DNA from: an uncultured bacterium
GTDB taxonomy: Bacteria; Patescibacteriota; Minisyncoccia; UBA6257; 2-01-FULL-56-20
Reading direction: 5' to 3'
Length of the DNA: 64,000 nucleotides
NCBI GenBank assembly: GCA_963844965.1
Contig: CAWJQC010000007.1
Coordinates: 64,001 to 128,000 of the forward strand
The first letter of the stretch is position 1. Every line of letters starts with the position of its first letter. Made by a program: the position numbers and the translations under genes. Below the pieces are notes generated by a model. It was given only the letters and a program-made list of their open reading frames with translations, was not told the DNA's origin and did no database searches. Positions 3,388 through 42,507 of the stretch are shown in pieces.

Positions 3388-4638
3388 ATGAAAGAGAGCA
3401 AGAAGCAGCGCCATATTCAGAAGAAGAAGGAGAAGCCCCAAGAAATCTTGGCGAATATAAAAGTGGTCGGCATTGGCGGCGGAGGGGGAAATGCGGTGGC
3501 GCGCATGAGCAAGAACTTCATCCGCGGAGTTGAATTTGTTGCCATCAATACCGACCATCAGGACCTTGACCGGTGCAGCGTGCGCAGGAAAATTTATATC
3601 GGTAAAAATCTCACGAAAGGATTGGGCACCGGCATGAATCCGGACCTCGGGAGGCAGGCGGCGGAAGAGAATAAGTCGGAGATTGCGGAGGCGCTCGCAG
3701 GCGCGGATATGGTTTTTGTGGCGGCGGGGTTGGGCGGCGGAACCGGTTCCGGCGGAGCGCCGGTCATTGCCGAGGTCGCGAAGCACAGCGGAGCGCTCAC
3801 GATTGCCGTTGTCACGAAACCCTTCGCTTTTGAAGGAGCCCAGCGCGACAGGATCGCCCGCGAGGGCCTCGTGAAGCTGAAGGACAAGGTGGACGCCATA
3901 ATCGTGGTTCCGAACGATAGGATTTTCAGTATCATCAGCAAGGATACGCCGATCATGAAGGCCTTTGACGCAATTGACGACGTTCTGAGGAACGCGCTCC
4001 GCGGCATTGTTGAGCTGATTGTTTCTCCGGGGATAATCAACGTTGACTTCGCCGATGTCAAAACGATAGTTCAGGACGCCGGCGCCGCCGTTATCGGGGT
4101 CGGGATTGGGTCTGGTGCTGACAGGGCCGCGAGCGCCGTCAATCTGGCGCTAAGCTCGCCGCTCGTTGAGGCGACTGCCGAAGGCGCGAAAGCGGTGCTT
4201 TTGGGAATTTCCGGCGGGCGCGATTTGAAAATGAACGAGATAAATGAGGCGGCAAAAGTTGTCGCTCAGGTAGTAGATCCGGGCGCGCGCATAATATTCG
4301 GTGCGTATCACGATAAGAACTTGCGGCCGAACCAGGTCAAGGTCACTTTGATCGCTACCGGTTTTAACGGCAATCAGCCAAGCTCCCTTTTTCCCGGCGG
4401 CCAGTCGGGCGAGAAACATCCGGGTTATGGCGTGGAGTCGGCGCATGGCGACGACAAATCCAAAACCGGCATTGCTGATGCGAGAAAGACACAAGTTTTC
4501 AAATCTAAGCAGGAAAGCGGCGCGGTGCAGGCCGTTGCTGATAAAAGAAGAGACGATAATTTTCCGCAGAAAACCGAGGCGGCAAAAAGCGACAGCGACT
4601 GGGACTTCCCGACGTTTTTGAGAAAAAAGAAAAAATAA
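3388..4638 (+). CDS. ftsZ: Cell division GTPase FtsZ
   Basis: Tubulin signature GGGTGSG and VVGIGGGGGNAV, followed by a C-terminal low-complexity tail. Confidence 0.95.
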   Translation: MKESKKQRHIQKKKEKPQEILANIKVVGIGGGGGNAVARMSKNFIRGVEFVAINTDHQDLDRCSVRRKIYIGKNLTKGLGTGMNPDLGRQAAEENKSEIAEALAGADMVFVAAGLGGGTGSGGAPVIAEVAKHSGALTIAVVTKPFAFEGAQRDRIAREGLVKLKDKVDAIIVVPNDRIFSIISKDTPIMKAFDAIDDVLRNALRGIVELIVSPGIINVDFADVKTIVQDAGAAVIGVGIGSGADRAASAVNLALSSPLVEATAEGAKAVLLGISGGRDLKMNEINEAAKVVAQVVDPGARIIFGAYHDKNLRPNQVKVTLIATGFNGNQPSSLFPGGQSGEKHPGYGVESAHGDDKSKTGIADARKTQVFKSKQESGAVQAVADKRRDDNFPQKTEAAKSDSDWDFPTFLRKKKK

Positions 4639-4654
4639 TCCGCTTAAGAATTTC

Positions 4655-4678
4655 AACCCCCTCTGTTGCGAGGGGGTT
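4655..4678. terminator. Bidirectional intrinsic terminator between ftsZ and rmuC
   Basis: Hairpin AACCCCCT-N8-AGGGGGTT flanked by T-runs, lying between two convergent genes. Confidence 0.6.
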
Positions 4679-4701
4679 TCACTTCTGGCTGAGGTCGTTT
4701 C

Positions 4702-5748
4702 CTAATCGTCGCTTTCAGTGTCTGGTCCTTCAATCGCCATGGGCTCTATATTCATGCCTTCGCCGGTGATTTTCAGAACGTCTTTGTCCACTTTTTTCAG
4801 TTCTTTGTAGGCTTTTGTATACATTCCTACCGTTGTTCCGAGGTGTGTTCCCAATTTTTGCATGTAGGCATCGTAGCTCCCGAGATGTCTTCCCAATTCT
4901 TCCACGCGGGCGCGGATTTCCTTTGCCGATTCTTCAATTTGCATCGCCTTTAGTCCCTGGAGGACCGTTTGCAGATAGGCGAGAAACGAAGTGGGGGAGA
5001 CGATGATCACCTTCTTATCTTTTGTCGCGTACTCCACGAGGTCGCGCGTGTTCGCCTTTACCGAGCCGATTTTGTTGACGAGAAGATCGTAGTAAATGGC
5101 TTCGGAGGGGATGAACATGAAGGCGAAGTCCATCGTGCCTTCGTTGGGCTTGATGTATTTTGACGTTTCGTCAATTCTGGTTTTGAGGTCGTTTTTGAAT
5201 ACTTCCTCAAGTCGTTCCCGCTCGGCGTCATTTTTCGCTTCAAGAATGCGGTTGTAATTATCAAGACTGAATTTGGAATCAATCGGTATGATCCTGTCTT
5301 TTACGAAAATGATGGCATCCACAATCGTTCCGTCCTTGAATCCGTACTGCATTTGATACGTACCCGGCGGCATGACATTCTTCAAAACCGTTTCCAGGTA
5401 ATATTCGCCGAGTATCCCGCGCTGTTTCGGGTTTTTCAGGATATCCTGGAGATTTTTCAGCTGGTCGGTTATGTTCATGACCTGCTTTTGCCCTTCGCCC
5501 ACCTTTGTGAGCTCGGTCGTGATTTCCTTGATGATTTTGGCGCTTTCGCCGAATTGTTGCTGGATCACCTTCGTAGATTCGCCGAGTTTTGTATCAAGCG
5601 TGCGTGAGAGTTCATTGATTTGGTTCTGAATCAGTAGAAACGCCTGATCTTTTTGATCGGTTTTCTTGTGAGCTCTTACGAAATTCCAGAAGATGGCGAT
5701 TCCCGCAGCTAAGACTATTAAGACGATTATGAGGAGTATTGTTTCCAT
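4702..5748 (-). CDS. rmuC: DNA recombination protein RmuC
   Basis: N-terminal transmembrane segment, a long coiled coil, and a C-terminal RmuC-type domain (FAFMFIPSEAIYYDL). Confidence 0.8.
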   Translation of the reverse strand: METILLIIVLIVLAAGIAIFWNFVRAHKKTDQKDQAFLLIQNQINELSRTLDTKLGESTKVIQQQFGESAKIIKEITTELTKVGEGQKQVMNITDQLKNLQDILKNPKQRGILGEYYLETVLKNVMPPGTYQMQYGFKDGTIVDAIIFVKDRIIPIDSKFSLDNYNRILEAKNDAERERLEEVFKNDLKTRIDETSKYIKPNEGTMDFAFMFIPSEAIYYDLLVNKIGSVKANTRDLVEYATKDKKVIIVSPTSFLAYLQTVLQGLKAMQIEESAKEIRARVEELGRHLGSYDAYMQKLGTHLGTTVGMYTKAYKELKKVDKDVLKITGEGMNIEPMAIEGPDTESDD

Positions 5749-36919: not shown

Positions 36920-37001
36920 TTTTGAGCCGGAAAGGGCAATAATGCAGTGGAGATTTGCGGTTGAGGAAATTTAAAAAGTATGATAAAATAAGAACAACGG
37001 G

Positions 37002-38027
37002 ATGGATAAAAAACAGATTATACAATATATAGAAGGCGCGCGGCACTCGCGCATTATAACCTACCTTACGAGCGACAGGCAGGGGCCGTTTAACGCGCGG
37101 ATAGCGATGGACATTGTGCCGCTTGTGAGCAAACAGCTTCGGAATATAGGGAAAACGCAGAATATAGACCTTTACCTTTATAGTGTGGGCGGGGATACGA
37201 TGGCGCCGTGGCGGCTGGTGTCTATGATCCGCGAATATTGCGACAAATTTTCCGTGCTGGTGCCATATAAAGCGCACAGTGCGGCAACGATGGTTGCGCT
37301 TGGAGCGGATGAAATTGTGATGAGCGACCTTTCGGAGCTTTCGCCGATTGATCCCTCCACCGCGAACGTTTTCAATCCGATTGACCCGGCGAATCCGCAA
37401 AATCGCATTCCGATTTCGGTTGAGGATGTGATGGCATATTTTGAACTGGCAAAAAATAAATTCGGCATAAAAAGCGACGAAGATTTAGCCCGCATATTTA
37501 TGAAATTCGTTGAAGCCAATCCGCAAATTCATCCGCTCGCGCTTGGAAACGTAAACCGCATCCATAACCTTATTCGTATCCTTGCGAAGCGGTTGATCAA
37601 AAGCCACAAAACGCCGCTCAAAGAAGAAGAGGTGGAAAAAATCGTTGATTACTTCACCGAAAAATTATATTCTCACCAGTATTTCATCGGTAGAAAAGAA
37701 GCGAAAGACGATTTGGGGCTTAAAACCGTCGTTGACGCCGACGCCAATCTTTCCAAAGCGATGTCCGACCTCCTGGAGGAATACAACAAAGATTTGGATT
37801 TTGGGAAAATCTGGAATCCCGAAGGCGAATTGGGCGCGAACGCCGTGCAGACCCGAAAGGATTATAAAATTGCCTACATTGAGAGCCGCCAGCTTTCAAA
37901 TTATTATGATATCTCCGTTGAGTACAGAAAACAGCAGGTAAATATGGTCCAACAAACGCCGCAAGGACCAATTCAGGTTCCGCAGGAACAAGTCGGGTTC
38001 AAAATCATCGGGCAAGGGTGGAAATAG
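37002..38027 (+). CDS. ClpP-fold (SDH / S49-like) serine peptidase
   Basis: ClpP/crotonase-fold core LYLYSVGGDTMAPWRLV...YKAHSAATMVALGADEIVMS. No ATPase domain. Confidence 0.6.
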   Translation: MDKKQIIQYIEGARHSRIITYLTSDRQGPFNARIAMDIVPLVSKQLRNIGKTQNIDLYLYSVGGDTMAPWRLVSMIREYCDKFSVLVPYKAHSAATMVALGADEIVMSDLSELSPIDPSTANVFNPIDPANPQNRIPISVEDVMAYFELAKNKFGIKSDEDLARIFMKFVEANPQIHPLALGNVNRIHNLIRILAKRLIKSHKTPLKEEEVEKIVDYFTEKLYSHQYFIGRKEAKDDLGLKTVVDADANLSKAMSDLLEEYNKDLDFGKIWNPEGELGANAVQTRKDYKIAYIESRQLSNYYDISVEYRKQQVNMVQQTPQGPIQVPQEQVGFKIIGQGWK

Positions 38028-38029
38028 CC

Positions 38030-38710
38030 ATGAATTTTTCTGATTACAAGAATTCTATTTTACTGCCCGATCAATCTGCTTGGCAACAGGCGGAGTATTG
38101 GATTACTGAATCGAATATCAATGTTTTCAGCTTTCTTTCCTCTCAAAACGTTTCCATCAAAACTACGAGTTCTTCTGCTAGAGAGCTTTCATTCCAGTCG
38201 TACGTTCAGAATTTGTTTGTCAACGACCTTTCGAATACAGCGTCAGAATTAAATAGTAAGGAATCCTTTGTTTTGTCTTCCATTAATGGCTCTTTGACTT
38301 TTGAAAAATTAAGCCCCTTGGGATTTCCGGCACAAGTTATTCCAGATAAAGAGTTGGGTTCTTTAATAAAATCAAACCAATTTCCACTTTGGGATTCCTC
38401 GCCCTTCTTTTTGAGAATGAAAAGGAATAGGCGCAGTCAAGCTGATATCGAGCATTTTTATCTTGGGAGATATTTACAGAAGAATAAGCAGCCATTTTTC
38501 GTTTTTACAAATGACGACGACCAGATCCGGCAGGCTCAGCTTGAAGGATTTAAATTTATGCGGCCGCCAGACCTTCTGGTGTGGATGGTTAAAGATACGT
38601 TTGTCACGCGACAAAAAGCCGTGTGGGCTTACGAGAAAGCAAAAAAACATAATGCGCGATGGGCGAAAGCAGGCCTAAGATTCAGAGATATTCTGAACAA
38701 GTGTAGGTAA
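38030..38710 (+). CDS. Hypothetical protein, translationally coupled to the ClpP-like peptidase
   Basis: The ATG lies 3 nt after the upstream stop, with a GGTGGA ribosome-binding site. No recognisable domain. Confidence 0.55.
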   Translation: MNFSDYKNSILLPDQSAWQQAEYWITESNINVFSFLSSQNVSIKTTSSSARELSFQSYVQNLFVNDLSNTASELNSKESFVLSSINGSLTFEKLSPLGFPAQVIPDKELGSLIKSNQFPLWDSSPFFLRMKRNRRSQADIEHFYLGRYLQKNKQPFFVFTNDDDQIRQAQLEGFKFMRPPDLLVWMVKDTFVTRQKAVWAYEKAKKHNARWAKAGLRFRDILNKCR

Positions 38711-38775
38711 CTTAGCGCAATGCCCTCTCTTAACTGGATTGGGAAAGAAAAAATCGTAAATCACGACAAAGTTAA

Positions 38776-39795
38776 ATGACCGAGTTGAAAAATCGGACTT
38801 TATATTTCGGCGACAATCTGGAAATCCTACGCGAGAAAATTCCCGACGAGAGTTTTGATTTGATTTACCTTGACCCGCCGTTCAATTCCAACCGTGCCTA
38901 CAATGTAATTTATAAGGAAGGGTTGCAGGACAGCCCGGCACAAATTAAGGCCTTTGAGGATTCTTGGCATTGGACGCCGGAGGCGCAGGCAACTTTTGAG
39001 GAACTTGTCGGCATGCGGCAATCAAGGACGAAAATCAACGCTGACATTGTCAATTTGATGCAGGCGATGGAAAAACTCGTGGGACACAATGATATGCTTG
39101 CGTACCTTACAATGATGACAGTTCGGCTCATTGAACTGCGGCGCGTTTTGAAGTCAACCGGCAGTATTTATCTGCATTGCGACCCGACCGCAAGCCATTA
39201 TTTGAAAATCGTGATGGACACGATTTTCGGAAAACAGAATTTCCAAAACGAAATTATTTGGTGTTATGAAATCGGAGCTAGAAGTAAAACACACTGGGGG
39301 AGTAAACACGATGTAATTCTCTTTTATACAAAATCAGGAAACTTTATCTTTAACACAAGGGCCGTTGCTGTGCCACGGAAAGAAGGGACACACATGAAAA
39401 CCGCAGTAGACGAAGAAGGAAGAGAATATCAAGAAAAGAAGGATGCAAAAAGTGGTAAGGTCTATAGATATTATCTTGATGAAGGCGCCATCCCTCCCGA
39501 TTGGTGGGTGGGAATTCAGCAATTAAATCGTGAAGCACAAGAAAGATTGCATTATCCCACCCAAAAACCCGAAGCGCTTCTGGAAAGAATTATTAAGGCA
39601 TCGTCTAACGGACCTCCGCCAAGTCCTTCGCTGATTGCGACAGAGACAGAGGAGGTGGAGGAGAATAGAGGCGATTGGGTTCTTGACCCGTTTTGCGGTT
39701 GCGGCACGACGGTTGCCGTCGCCGAGCGGCTGAAAAGAAACTGGGTCGGCATTGACCCGCTCCGCCGCAAGCCCCGGCCTTTAGGCCGAGGATAA
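38776..39795 (+). pseudogene. N4/N6 DNA methyltransferase (beta class) whose 3' end is interrupted by an IS200/IS605 element
   Basis: DPPFN motif IV near the N-terminus and DPFCGCGTT motif I near the C-terminus. The reading frame runs into IS sequence after ...NWVGID. Confidence 0.8.
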
Positions 39796-40320
39796 GGCGA
39801 CCCCGTAGCCCCGAGCGAAGCGAGGGGCGGAGGGCTTATTTGCCTGTTCCCACTGGTTTCTGCCGGTGCGATAATGAAGATAATGCCCTCTGGATTCTGG
39901 CCAAGCAACCACAGCTATACGCGATGTTTGTACCACGTTGTTTTCTGCCCAAAGTACCGCCGCTCGATACTGCGAGGGGACATGGTCGGGCGACTCAAGA
40001 CATTGTTCTTTCAAGCCGCCAAGATGAATAAATGGTTCATCCATGAAGCGCAGATAATGCCCGACCATGTCCATCTATTGCTTCAAATTCCTGCTACCCT
40101 GACGGTTGCCAAAGCGGTGTTTTATCTCAAAGGCGGTACGTCCAGGGCTGTCAGAAAAGAATTTCCCGAGCTGGAAGAATTCCTCTGGGGAGACAGCTTG
40201 TGGCAGGATGGTTACTTTGCCGAAACCGTTGGCCGTCAAAACGAAAAAGCGATGAGAGAATATATCAGAAACCAGTGGGAACAGGAGCCGAACACAAGCC
40301 GCGGGCTTTAGCCCGCGGTG
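39757..40320 (+). mobile_element. IS200/IS605-family element (tnpA only)
   Basis: Y1 HuH transposase ORF and subterminal hairpins (CCGCGGGC-TTTA-GCCCGCGG at 40297-40317). A 20-bp inverted repeat CCTGTTCCCACTGGTTTCTG occurs at 39844-39863 and 40266-40285. An ATTGAC hexamer abuts both ends. Confidence 0.75.
39874..40311 (+). CDS. tnpA: IS200/IS605 TnpA (Y1 HuH transposase)
   Basis: YHVVFCPKYRR ... MPDHVHLLLQIP (HuH motif) ... YIRNQ C-terminus. Confidence 0.9.
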   Translation: MKIMPSGFWPSNHSYTRCLYHVVFCPKYRRSILRGDMVGRLKTLFFQAAKMNKWFIHEAQIMPDHVHLLLQIPATLTVAKAVFYLKGGTSRAVRKEFPELEEFLWGDSLWQDGYFAETVGRQNEKAMREYIRNQWEQEPNTSRGL

Positions 40321-40935
40321 ATTGACATTACGATGCTTGCCATCAATTTAATAAAACACCGGCTGATAGACGGCTTGGGAGTGGGACGGAACGAAATATG
40401 CACCGACGGTATTCCAAAGGACTTGAGCGGAGCGGAGGAACTGGCCAAAAAGGACAGATTTGCCTTTGAGTATTGGGTTTTGGATTTGGTGAACGCCGTT
40501 CCGGCGCAAAGCAAGACGAAAGAAAATATGCGCGGCGCGGACAAGGGGATTGACGGCATAATTACCATCGTAAAGTCGGTCAAGGACAATAAAAAAGAGC
40601 TTGGGAAAATTTTGGTTCAGGTGAAAAGCGGCGGCGTCCATCGCGACGACGTAGCCACGCTTAAGAGCGACGTTGAACGGGAAAAGGCCGTCGGCGGCGT
40701 TTTCATCACGCTGGAAAAGCCGACTCAGCCGATGAGAACGGAGGCGGTTGAGGCGGGAACGTTCAGGGTTGACTACTCCCAGGAAAATTTGCCGAAAATT
40801 CAGATTATAACGGTTGAGGACTTGTTGAGCGGCAAGAAACTGGACCTGCCTCCGGCCGTGGCGCTTCAGGAAACCTACTATAAGGAAGCAAAACCTGCGA
40901 AACCCGAAAACAGGGCAAAAAAATTGGGAATATAG
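40318..40935 (+). pseudogene. Mrr-like PD-(D/E)xK restriction endonuclease domain, separated from the methyltransferase by the IS200 insertion (likely the C-terminal part of one fusion protein)
   Basis: FAFEYWVLDLV...GADKGIDGII...ILVQVKSG is the Mrr_cat pattern. The frame is open from the IS end with no ATG (GTG only). Joining ...NWVGID to ITMLAINLIKHRL... gives a typical methyltransferase C-terminal helix. Confidence 0.65.
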
Positions 40936-40941
40936 AATTTT

Positions 40942-41595
40942 ATGAATTTGGATGAATTTAAACTGCAGAATTTGGGCATTGACAAAGAAAAATTCGGAAA
41001 AATTCTCAGCTTTGTAGACTTCGGCAACGTTAATTATTGGTATGAGAAAGACCGGCGCGACTGGGAGGACAACACCATTAAGCCGAATCAAAGATTAATA
41101 ATTGATATCGCAAAACTCGCTCAATTTTTGAATCTTTTCTCTGATCAAAAGCGCTTTTACTACGGATGGCACAAGCGCATGAAGAGATCTTGGCATATTT
41201 TGGTATTGGCGGAGAGAAATGGATTTGTTAAAATTACCAAACCAATACAATTCATAAAGCATTATCTTGAAGAGTTAGAGTTGGCGAGCGCAAACGGGAG
41301 GCTTGTTAAAGAAGACTTGATGGGCAGGTATATTGAAATTCCAAAAAGCAATTTTGATGTAGAGATAAGCGTTGATTCAATTCGTTTGCTGGACAAATAC
41401 AATACATTTTGCTTGCTTTCCGGCGATAGCGATTTTACTTATTTAAACCGATTTTTAAAAAGAAGGGGGAAGAAAATTATTGTTATTGCTGCAGGTCAAA
41501 TACTTCATTCCCTAAAAGAAACCGCGGACTTATATATAAACGCGCAGACAATTAAGGGAAGCATTGCCGCCGTAAAAGAAACCTCGCCCGGTTAA
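40942..41595 (+). CDS. NYN-domain (LabA-like, PIN fold) protein
   Basis: FVDFGNVNYW, DVEISVD and LLSGDSDF acidic motifs. Confidence 0.7.
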   Translation: MNLDEFKLQNLGIDKEKFGKILSFVDFGNVNYWYEKDRRDWEDNTIKPNQRLIIDIAKLAQFLNLFSDQKRFYYGWHKRMKRSWHILVLAERNGFVKITKPIQFIKHYLEELELASANGRLVKEDLMGRYIEIPKSNFDVEISVDSIRLLDKYNTFCLLSGDSDFTYLNRFLKRRGKKIIVIAAGQILHSLKETADLYINAQTIKGSIAAVKETSPG

Positions 41596-41724: not shown

Positions 41725-42507
41725 ATGTCCCAATATTACAAGCCGAAACGCGGCAGGAATTTATACAATCCGGCGAATCCGGAGCCGTTCGTCGTCAGCC
41801 GTTCCGGCATTGACCTATATATAGAGTGCCCGCGGTGTTTTTATCTGGACAGGCGTCTTGGCACCGCTAGGCCGCCGGGTTTTCCTTTCAGTTTGAACAC
41901 GGCGGTTGATGCTTTGCTCAAAAAAGAATTTGACATCCACCGCGCCGCGAACACGCAGCATCCCTTGATGAAAAAATATGGCATTGACGCCGTGCCCTAT
42001 GCGCACGAAAAGCTGGAAGAGTGGCGCGATTCCCGCCTTCGGGGCATAAAATTTTTCCACGAGCCGACGAATCTCACGATAAAAGGCGGCATTGACGACG
42101 TCTGGGTAAATCCGAAAGGAGAATTGCATATCGTGGATTACAAAGCTACCTCAAAAACATCGGAAGTTAACATTGACGCCGAGTGGCAGAGCGGATACAA
42201 GCGGCAGATGGAAGTTTACCAGTGGCTTTTCCGCAAGAACGGCTTTGATGTTTCCGACATCGGCTATTTCGTTTACTGCAACGGCGACACGGACAAAAAA
42301 GCGTTTGACGCCAAGCTGGAATTTAACGTCAAGGTGATTCCCTACAAAGGAAACGACGGCTGGGTGGAGGAAACGATTCGCGAGGTAAAAAGCTGCCTTG
42401 ATTTTGATGAACTTCCCGCGGCGAACGACAGCTGCGACTGGTGTGCCTACTTCGGCGCGAGAGAACGGCTGGAGAAAGGAAACAGCGACTTTATTGAGAG
42501 CGCGTGA
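41725..42507 (+). CDS. PD-(D/E)xK nuclease with a four-Cys cluster (Cas4/RecB-like)
   Basis: GIDDVWVNPKGELHIVDYKATSK core; N-terminal CPRC and C-terminal CDWC. Confidence 0.65.
   Translation: MSQYYKPKRGRNLYNPANPEPFVVSRSGIDLYIECPRCFYLDRRLGTARPPGFPFSLNTAVDALLKKEFDIHRAANTQHPLMKKYGIDAVPYAHEKLEEWRDSRLRGIKFFHEPTNLTIKGGIDDVWVNPKGELHIVDYKATSKTSEVNIDAEWQSGYKRQMEVYQWLFRKNGFDVSDIGYFVYCNGDTDKKAFDAKLEFNVKVIPYKGNDGWVEETIREVKSCLDFDELPAANDSCDWCAYFGARERLEKGNSDFIESA

Follow-up and report, generated by a model that had tools for sequence, protein, structure and literature searches.

We analysed two adjacent genes in a window of 64,000 nucleotides from an uncultured bacterium of the Patescibacteriota (assembly GCA_963844965.1, contig CAWJQC010000007.1, positions 64,001 to 128,000 of the forward strand). 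The first open reading frame (ORF1) encodes a serine protease of the SDH type with a predicted ClpP-like fold, and the second (ORF2) a protein that we predict to be a divergent PIN-like nuclease. Together they probably make up a toxin or defence module under protease control, of a kind not described before. Our favoured reading, to which we give a probability of about 0.45, is a module, sited in a defence island, in which the ORF1 protease gates ORF2 as its nuclease effector. It draws on the predicted folds and the catalytic residues of the two proteins, their operon-like layout, the co-occurrence of the genes in both gene orders, the swapping of cassettes behind the protease, and the island context. 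Loci are labelled below with L-numbers, proteins of the ORF2 family with P-numbers, and protein clusters with c-numbers.

A conserved SDH-type protease

A preliminary description of this DNA, made from the letters alone, had called ORF1 a ClpP-fold serine peptidase, and profile comparisons agreed. ORF1 scored 53.1 bits against Pfam PF01972 SDH_protease (cut-off 31.3 bits, E 3e-14), in a match that covered aa 2-123 only. The serine motif quoted in that description, YKAHSAATMVALGAD, was found at aa 89-103 and contains Ser93 in an HSA motif. Against NCBIfam NF047768 the score was 60.4 bits (cut-off 250), which does not reach equivalog level. The family phrog_11747, whose function is undescribed, matched aa 4-254 (E 5e-37), models of ClpP-related head-maturation proteases matched weakly, and a PDB sequence search with ORF1 returned no match. 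The AlphaFold model of ORF1 was confident (predicted local distance difference test, pLDDT, 83.6) and showed an alpha/beta core like that of ClpP, a middle region made of helices and long C-terminal beta-hairpins; that is, the predicted structure has the alpha/beta fold of the ClpP/crotonase type.

Residues S93, D103, D117, H177 and H225, along with about 30 others, were invariant among 71 homologues that reached down to 36% identity, and the invariant Ser, Asp and His residues were also kept in a homologue from Escherichia coli prophages. They follow one another as Ser, Asp and His, the succession from which the SDH family takes its name, with the Asp and His residues standing as triad candidates only. 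ORF1 resembles SDH-type proteinases (PF01972, NF047768; the ClpP/SppA/NfeD class) in its Pfam score, in Ser93 of the HSA motif and in this residue order, but differs from them in its sub-cut-off NF047768 score and in about 200 extra residues. These residues, which form the helical region and the long beta-hairpins beyond the Pfam match, are specific to the subfamily and equally conserved. Judged by its profile scores, ORF1 belongs to a divergent subfamily of SDH/ClpP-fold peptidases and is not an NF047768 equivalog. The protein is predicted to be cytoplasmic, and no transmembrane segment was evident by eye in the translation (no predictor was run).

More than 2252 homologues of ORF1 were found. 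The best 120 clusters were 80-87% identical to it, almost all exactly 341 aa long, and came from Patescibacteria of the Colwell-, Azam-, Giovannoni-, Staskawicz-, Moran- and Paceibacteria types; across many classes of Patescibacteria the identity was 65-87%. A clade at ~80% identity came from metagenome-assembled genomes (MAGs) labelled Nitrospirae, Bacteroidota, Smithella/Syntrophaceae, Omnitrophota and delta-proteobacterium, of which some labels may be binning errors; the copy labelled delta-proteobacterium lies on a 2.09-Mb contig. When one genome for each of 185,579 species was scanned, the protease was detected in 71 loci, which is an undercount because the scan used exact peptide patterns. 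A scan of IMG/VR with ORF1 peptide patterns found no relative.

Nonsynonymous divergence (dN) of the protease was 0.08-0.25 and synonymous sites were saturated (proportion of synonymous differences, pS, 0.66-0.85), with omega at ~0.05. The protease is under very strong purifying selection. Recent horizontal spread was considered as the cause of the high protease identity and was rejected, because synonymous sites were saturated. DNA similarity between protease loci started 0-35 nt 5' of the start codon and stopped exactly at the stop codon, and both flanks of the gene differed between genomes. Such comparisons of loci indicate that the protease is an accessory, mobile gene and not a housekeeping SppA. 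It ranks among the most conserved accessory proteins of Patescibacteria, and such constraint calls for an explanation.

The E. coli homologue (L109, 2229-3224; L112, 3501-4496) is 33% identical to ORF1, aligns with it end to end, and is annotated in RefSeq as 'SDH family Clp fold serine proteinase'. It stands alone, on the opposite strand, in the moron slot between the Q antiterminator and holin genes of lambdoid prophages and of a phage-plasmid; among 5426 complete E. coli genomes, 47 carried the prophage homologue, which has the accessions WP_044064371 and WP_086714419. More distant homologues were found as cargo of Porphyromonas phages (adjoining HicAB) and of a Mu-like Shewanella phage, and further ones on a 4.15-kb ColE1-type plasmid and an inovirus-like episome. 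The Q-holin moron homologue offers a tractable host for direct study of the role of the protease.

A predicted PIN-like fold for ORF2

ORF2 matched no profile in Pfam, NCBIfam, PHROGs or PADLOC (PADLOC-DB v2.0.0, with matches up to E 0.1 considered for ORF1 and ORF2). The preliminary label of a 'domain-less' protein is thus correct at the level of sequence profiles, but it fails at the level of fold. The AlphaFold2 model, computed from ORF2 and its four closest relatives (pLDDT 80.9; predicted template modelling score, pTM, 0.80), has the parallel beta-sheet sandwiched between helices that characterizes PIN folds, and a disordered stretch at aa 57-75. In an alignment of 48 family members, D139 was invariant, D14 and D162 were at least 90% conserved and E52 at least 70%. 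Of these four acidic residues, one closes strand 1, one belongs to the helix that follows strand 2, one opens a helix, and one comes right behind strand 4 within a TND motif; with strands predicted at 10-13, 42-46 and 156-159 and a helix at 138-151, their positions fit the PIN topology. The family also has an insert of variable sequence (about aa 57-118) and ends in a helical extension. From the model and these residues we predict that ORF2 is a metal-dependent, divergent PIN-like nuclease, probably a ribonuclease, whose acidic active site is intact. Profile searches came near this assignment only in part: 3 of the 48 relatives brushed Pfam PIN_4 (best E 0.011), ORF2 itself had no Pfam PIN match, and a PDB sequence search with the family profiles A1 and A2 gave chance-level matches only (E > 0.1).

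The ORF2 family is rare. A full HMMER scan of 1.84 billion representative proteins recovered 56 clusters at E < 1e-3, nearly all of them 200-270 aa long, and tblastn of ORF2 against phage and plasmid collections found no match. With the present prediction, this rare orphan family gains a PIN-like fold and an active site that can be tested. Because both ORF1 and ORF2 have homologues elsewhere and confident AlphaFold models, we concluded that the pair is real and not the product of a chance ORF. We also asked whether ORF2 could be the restriction endonuclease that would partner the neighbouring methyltransferase, and rejected this because the methyltransferase has its own Mrr domain and a Res subunit is present in other loci.

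Layout of the pair

ORF1 and ORF2 are separated by 2 nt (coordinates in Table 1); the preliminary description had placed ORF2 3 nt after the stop codon with its start at 38031, one position too far. The good ribosome-binding site that it reported is present as a Shine-Dalgarno-like sequence 7 nt before the ATG, and a consensus scan found no terminator-like site between the two genes. The 2-nt gap, the Shine-Dalgarno-like site and the lack of a terminator-like site fit co-transcription and coupled translation. No small antitoxin-type ORF is paired with ORF2: the upstream gene encodes the 341-aa protease, and downstream lies a 19-codon remnant followed by a methyltransferase gene.

Upstream of ORF1, only positions 36967-37001 were conserved with other loci (L009, L011, L013, L019, L020, L024, L041, L057). 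A promoter-like site falls almost wholly inside this block, and the coincidence of the site with the only conserved upstream DNA suggests that the protease gene has a putative promoter of its own. Another promoter-like site, TTGAGA-17 nt-TATTAT (10 of 12 consensus positions), was seen at 37879-37907 in the 3' part of ORF1, where it overlaps a terminator-like hairpin. It could allow independent transcription of ORF2, and the number of such sites in the region was not above that in shuffled sequences.

Recurrence of the protease beside ORF2 relatives

Relatives of ORF2 were retrieved without reference to the protease, and their contigs were then inspected; 10 look-ups were informative. A protease gene was adjacent to the ORF2 relative in seven of them (P0002, P0003, P0004, P0005, P0158, P0170, P0165). 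It lay directly upstream for P0002, P0004 and P0170, and was separated from the relative by a gene of the c2 family for P0003 and P0005. For P0158 (L080) the order was permuted to PIN-like gene, methyltransferase::Mrr gene and protease gene. For P0165 (L083) the order was reversed, and the protease belonged to a 330-aa subfamily only 39% identical to ORF1. In L085 (P0172) the protease was reduced to a remnant of its last 18 codons. The conservation of the neighbourhood, which the preliminary description had proposed to examine, was therefore evident: the pair recurs in other genomes, ORF2 has homologues, and the co-occurring peptidase is the accessory and mobile gene described above. The outcome that the preliminary description had named as refuting, two genes that never meet elsewhere or an orphan ORF2 beside a housekeeping SppA-like enzyme, thus did not appear.

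The c2 family, a 223-aa membrane protein, was used in an independent metagenome search that gave 11 informative loci. An SDH protease gene lay directly upstream of c2 in nine of these. In the other two (L092, 84-1019; L093, 3041-3967) the upstream gene encoded a proteasome-subunit-like protein of 308-311 aa, which scored 30.8 bits against PF00227 (cut-off 22.4, E 2.9e-7) and is non-homologous to the SDH protease; in L093 the order was proteasome-like peptidase, c2 and an intact methyltransferase::Mrr gene. Taken as read from these sequences, the c2 loci are a case of non-homologous displacement of the peptidase at the same operon position. Because an unrelated peptidase takes the place of the protease, peptidase function as such would be what the partner needs, and no other single observation argues for this need as strongly.

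Interchangeable genes behind the protease

ORFs were called in 59 non-redundant protease loci, each extending 800 nt or more beyond the protease, and the encoded proteins were clustered. In 52 of the 59 loci the gene that came next lay on the same strand as the protease, and in 39 it lay within 60 nt; gaps of 0-30 nt made up 36 of the 52 same-strand cases. The genes that follow the protease fell into at least 11 unrelated families plus 6 singletons, and the ORF2 family accounted for 4 of the 39 tightly linked cases. Other partners included c2, DUF6941 (c8) with small membrane proteins (c6, c20), DUF6680 (c35) and RhuM. The preliminary proposal of a two-gene module is in part supported but needs amending after this survey: the unit is not a fixed one, since the ORF2 family is one of at least 11 alternative downstream genes, the protease also occurs alone, and two ORF2 relatives lack a protease.

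In a neighbour-joining tree of the protease the partner families were interleaved, and sister proteases bore different cassettes. The contrast in divergence was strong: between the window and L009 the proteases were 86% identical and the ORF2-family proteins 20%. Across the loci in which the family is paired with a protease, ORF2-family identity ranged from 20 to 53%, and ORF2-family dN was 2-14 times the protease dN for the same genome pairs. On these comparisons the protease is the constant part and the downstream gene the swappable part of the arrangement. A homologous N6_N4 methyltransferase gene lay within four genes downstream in 16 of the 59 loci, often at most 15 nt after the variable genes. 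The protease loci have a conflict-type context of restriction-modification genes, RhuM, Fic/Doc, NYN and IS200. The neighbourhood in the window is likewise the restriction-modification and mobile-element island that had been described, with a disrupted restriction-modification gene, an IS200 element and a NYN/Cas4-like pair. Values of G+C content at third codon positions (GC3) were 0.42 for ORF2, 0.55 for ORF1 and 0.63-0.66 for the flanking housekeeping genes.

We also considered a bacteriocin-type locus, on account of an ATP-binding cassette (ABC) transporter just upstream, and rejected it because ABC genes flank only 3 of ~60 protease loci.

A second protease subfamily of 322-325 aa, ~40% identical to ORF1 and with 734 homologues, was observed in L101-L108 (about 4001-5660). 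It is followed, 24 nt on, by an 84-aa gene and a 134-aa PF01850 PIN gene, which form a VapBC-like pair; the right flank past that pair differed between otherwise identical contigs (serine recombinase, NERD, peptidase M23). In another set of loci, labelled Staskawiczbacteria or related to these, the protease was found beside hrcA, grpE or dnaK (L041, L046, L058, L040, L043, L047, L067). In L041 and L046 the protease and one or two small variable genes were flanked by grpE on one side and dnaK-dnaJ on the other (chaperone genes identified by eye). This placement may be the result of one or a few old insertion events rather than of a functional link.

Proposed mechanism and alternatives

We propose that ORF1 and ORF2 would act as a co-transcribed two-gene conflict module, of defence or addiction type, at the edge of a restriction-modification island. 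ORF1 would be the constant part: an ATP-independent SDH-type ClpP-fold protease with Ser93 as nucleophile, probably ring-forming like other ClpP-fold peptidases, and present in many Patescibacteria as well as on mobile elements of other phyla. ORF2 would be one of many interchangeable downstream effector cassettes. From the evidence above we infer a proteolytic link between the two proteins, its direction (activation), its trigger and a role in defence. The nuclease would be made latent and be controlled by the protease post-translationally; upon a trigger, for example infection by a phage or disturbance of the neighbouring restriction-modification system, cleavage, most likely in the variable, disordered insert (~aa 57-118) or in the C-terminal extension of ORF2, would free the nuclease activity and bring about cell arrest. 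Activation appears more likely than continuous degradation, because ORF2 relatives persist without the protease, which would be lethal were the protease the sole antidote. If the link is functional, it would represent a new two-component conflict design, in which a self-compartmentalising, ATP-independent protease is the constant controller of interchangeable toxins. The module would moreover be one found mainly in the candidate phyla radiation, a poorly understood group in which little is known about defence beyond restriction-modification.

Several observations weigh against a protease-gated effector. Protease and ORF2 divergences were uncorrelated, so there is no sign of a co-evolving interface. 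Two of the 10 look-ups, both with distant ORF2 relatives, contained no protease: in L113 the order was NYN, a 251-aa protein, the PIN-like gene and a small methyltransferase gene, and in L114 (P0150) the relative was solitary next to a transfer RNA-like region. The protease, for its part, was without a tightly linked downstream gene in 20 of the 59 loci, including a clade of MAGs labelled non-Patescibacteria, and is solitary in the E. coli prophages also; it therefore has a function of its own. ORF2 relatives were tightly linked to a downstream methyltransferase gene in ~6 of 12 loci, some with overlapping stop and start codons, and the functional partner of ORF2 could be a restriction-modification system instead. 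As to the fold, hhalign of the ORF2 family against one canonical PF01850 PIN protein found no similarity, and the PIN assignment is based on a structure predicted from a 5-sequence alignment. The extreme conservation of the protease would be unusual for a direct phage sensor. The PADLOC search that the preliminary description had recommended matched no model to ORF1 or ORF2, nor to the E. coli and L083 protease homologues or to c2, c6, c8, c35, c21 and c26, and in the literature that we searched, neither a defence role of this protease family nor its pairing with PIN partners was described. To our knowledge, no experiment or family links an SDH protease to a PIN nuclease, and we know of no biochemical substrate for any close relative of ORF1.

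The main rival is that the two genes are independent neighbours in a recombination or defence hotspot. The protease would then be a self-sufficient accessory function (an exclusion or defence protease, or some other benefit to a mobile element), and ORF2 a separate, self-controlled PIN toxin or defence gene inserted in a variable slot. Solitary proteases in the lambdoid prophages, in the MAG clade labelled non-Patescibacteria, in L075 and on the 4.15-kb plasmid are as this rival would have it, and so are the solitary ORF2 relatives, the end of DNA similarity exactly at the protease stop codon, and the swapping of cassettes even between sister proteases. The GC3 of ORF2 is much lower than that of ORF1, for which reason ORF2 is probably the later arrival, and a single-protein PIN defence without antitoxin, DS-3, has been validated (PMC13092281). 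Cargo of a hotspot would be expected elsewhere too, yet the rare ORF2 family lay beside the protease in 7 of 10 look-ups, in three different orders of the genes, and in one case with a protease from a subfamily that is just 39% identical. Moreover, c2 was beside a peptidase in all 11 informative loci, two of them with the non-homologous proteasome-like one, and gaps of 0-30 nt dominate the same-strand cases. We consider independent neighbours rather unlikely on this balance. A different possibility is that the protease serves as an antitoxin, continuously degrading a constitutively active PIN-like toxin; loss of the protease or its inhibition (by element loss or a phage protease inhibitor) would let the nuclease build up, in an addiction or abortive-infection logic. 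The layout resembles that of toxin-antitoxin genes, with a tight gap and the protease gene in first position in most loci. A precedent for one conserved neutraliser with many toxins exists in toxin-antitoxin systems, where promiscuous antitoxin domains pair with many unrelated toxins. The second protease subfamily lies directly upstream of a VapBC-like pair, and many of the other partners are small membrane proteins that are plausibly toxic. However, P0150 (L114) and P0172 (L085) keep the acidic catalytic residues in the alignment and persist without a protease, which in L085 is cut to 18 codons, and a stable chambered protease would make a poor labile antitoxin for post-segregational killing. 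We judge an antitoxin role improbable.

A composite system would join ORF1, ORF2 and the downstream methyltransferase-nuclease into one restriction-modification-linked unit, in which the protease and the middle gene control restriction or guard the restriction-modification genes and fire upon their inhibition. PrrC and PARIS guard restriction-modification in this way and fire when restriction is inhibited. For control of restriction, ClpXP-dependent alleviation is an established precedent (PMC4231737). The idea gains from the homologous N6_N4 methyltransferase genes in 16 of the 59 loci, with gaps usually of at most 15 nt, and from the high DNA identity (82-88%) of Mod-gene 5' ends across loci. 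ORF2 relatives are followed by Mod-Res genes in L001-4 (with overlapping stop and start codons in L001), L065 and L081/82, and methyltransferase::Mrr takes that place in the window and L080; L080 keeps the trio in permuted order, and L093 places methyltransferase::Mrr behind the proteasome-like peptidase and c2. It sits poorly with the 43 of 59 protease loci that have no methyltransferase nearby, among others with the grpE-dnaK units, and with L005, L009 and L083, where protease and PIN-like gene are paired without restriction-modification genes. In the window itself IS200 has destroyed the restriction-modification gene but has left ORF1 and ORF2 intact. Such a composite strikes us as decidedly improbable. 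The least credible of the alternatives, in our estimate one with very little chance of being right, is that ORF1 is a housekeeping SppA-like or quality-control peptidase and ORF2 unrelated or non-functional. Very strong purifying selection and the placement beside hrcA-grpE-dnaK-dnaJ or HSP20 genes in several loci would suit a housekeeping role. Both flanks vary between genomes, however, and the distribution is patchy (71 loci among the species scanned, an undercount) and crosses phyla, including the 2.09-Mb contig; the protease rides on prophages and plasmids and has no transmembrane segment evident by eye, and ORF2 has homologues, a confident predicted fold and conserved catalytic residues.

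If the pair is a two-component conflict module, it may also mark a broader class that is undescribed. Such a class would be large and consist of peptidase-led immune or addiction operons, in which an ultra-conserved chambered peptidase, usually of the SDH/ClpP fold and occasionally proteasome-like, controls freely exchangeable effectors (PIN-like proteins, DUF6680, DUF6941 and several families of small membrane proteins). The operons would often be wired to type III or methyltransferase::Mrr genes and be widespread in Patescibacteria, and the class would occur as single genes in prophages of E. coli, on small plasmids and in inoviruses. We give the existence of this class a real but clearly less than even chance.

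Comparison with known systems

As far as curated models reach, the pair matches no PADLOC system and no curated PIN family holds ORF2. ORF2 is like PIN nucleases (VapC; Nmd4/SMG6, HARP, Nob1/Utp24) in having four acidic residues at the canonical positions. Unlike VapC, it is ~90 aa longer, with the variable insert and the C-terminal extension, and matches no curated PIN profile. VapBC systems also differ in that no small VapB-like antitoxin gene accompanies ORF2, whose upstream neighbour is the 341-aa protease; because of the missing antitoxin gene, we concluded that the pair is not a VapBC system. A closer parallel in effector type is found in DS-3 and DS-5, validated anti-phage systems from DefensePredictor that have a PIN ribonuclease effector and no classical antitoxin, with DS-5 requiring a second, non-antitoxin protein (PMC13092281). 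Neither includes a protease, and the likeness to ORF2 is one of effector type, with no sequence relationship established.

The NfeD (STOPP)-stomatin pair resembles the present one only in the protease core of ORF1, which is like 1510-N. ORF1 differs in that it has no NfeD C-terminal domain and no evident membrane anchor (no transmembrane predictor was run). The partner differs too, being swappable and either PIN-like or another small protein, not SPFH/stomatin: no Band_7 match was found in ORF2 and 47 relatives or in c2, c6, c8, c20, c21, c26, c35 and three others. Because an SPFH partner is lacking, the pair is not an NfeD-stomatin pair.

Immune effectors under protease control include bacterial gasdermin with its protease, CalpL and Craspase of type III CRISPR, and the Lit protease. 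The likeness to these would lie in the proposed logic only, a protease beside a latent effector (nuclease or membrane protein) in defence islands. ORF1 differs from their proteases in being of the ClpP-fold SDH type and not caspase-like, CHAT, trypsin-like or Lon, and neither ORF1 nor ORF2 has a recognisable sensor domain or signalling partner. A further difference is that here the protease is ultra-conserved and the effector variable, and cleavage of ORF2 is our proposal.

Genes downstream of the pair

Table 1. Positions of the protease/PIN-like gene pair and of neighbouring features in the window.
Feature	Position	Strand	Remarks
Promoter-like site, TTGAGG-17 nt-TAAAAT with TG extension	36961-36989	+	From consensus scan; directly 5' of ORF1
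ORF1, 341 aa	37002-38027	+	SDH-type ClpP-fold serine protease; stop TAG 38025-38027
Shine-Dalgarno-like GGGTGGA	38016-38022	+	Within 3' end of ORF1; 7 nt 5' of ORF2 ATG
ORF2, 226 aa	ATG 38030 to 38710	+	Divergent PIN-like nuclease (predicted)
19-codon mini-ORF, MPSLNWIGKEKIVNHDKVK	38720-38779	+	Stop overlaps methyltransferase ATG (AATGA)
N6_N4 methyltransferase::Mrr fusion, single-chain restriction-modification gene	38776-40935	+	Pfam N6_N4_Mtase, Y1_Tnp, Mrr_cat; context, outside the pair
NYN-domain gene	40942-41595		GC3 0.42, the same low value as ORF2
PD-(D/E)XK Cas4-like gene	41725-42507		Cluster c18

The DNA behind ORF2 carries traces of rearrangement. Positions 38720-38769 (50 nt, encoding MPSLNWIGKEKIVNHDK) were 82-88% identical to the 5' ends of type III Mod-like genes that lie downstream of the protease in six loci (L011, L012, L019, L027, L065, L085), and the mini-ORF peptide is also the start of the methyltransferases in L027 and L065. 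The mini-ORF may be what is left of the N-terminus of a type III Mod-like methyltransferase, such an N-terminus in a shifted frame, or a recombination joint.

The methyltransferase::Mrr gene that follows is split by an IS200-type element into 38776-39756, 39757-40317 and 40318-40935, and by its sequence it is inactivated by this 561-nt IS200-like insertion. Intact orthologues have 505 aa (L080) and 496 aa (L093). The insertion point lies exactly between the codons for WVGID and ITMLAINLIKHRL, and ATTGAC flanks the element on both sides (39751-39756 and 40318-40323). Inside the element are the Y1 transposase ORF (39874-40311) and a perfect 20-nt inverted repeat (39843-39862 and 40266-40285). 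The methyltransferase part also has a GC-rich in-frame insertion of 60 nt (39609-39668, encoding GPPPSPSLIATETEEVEENR), which is absent from the L080 and L093 orthologues and is skipped by the DNA match with L033; within it, positions 39613-39632 show 75% complementarity to 39814-39833, a stretch close to the left end of the IS200-like element.

A NYN gene also occurs near the distant ORF2 relative in L113 (1-432), where there is no protease, which hints at a separate association of NYN and PIN-like genes. Homologues of the c18 gene were seen in other protease loci: L048 has one directly upstream, L047 one further upstream, and L050 one at a distance of ~5 kb upstream; the c18 genes may be housekeeping genes or part of the island.

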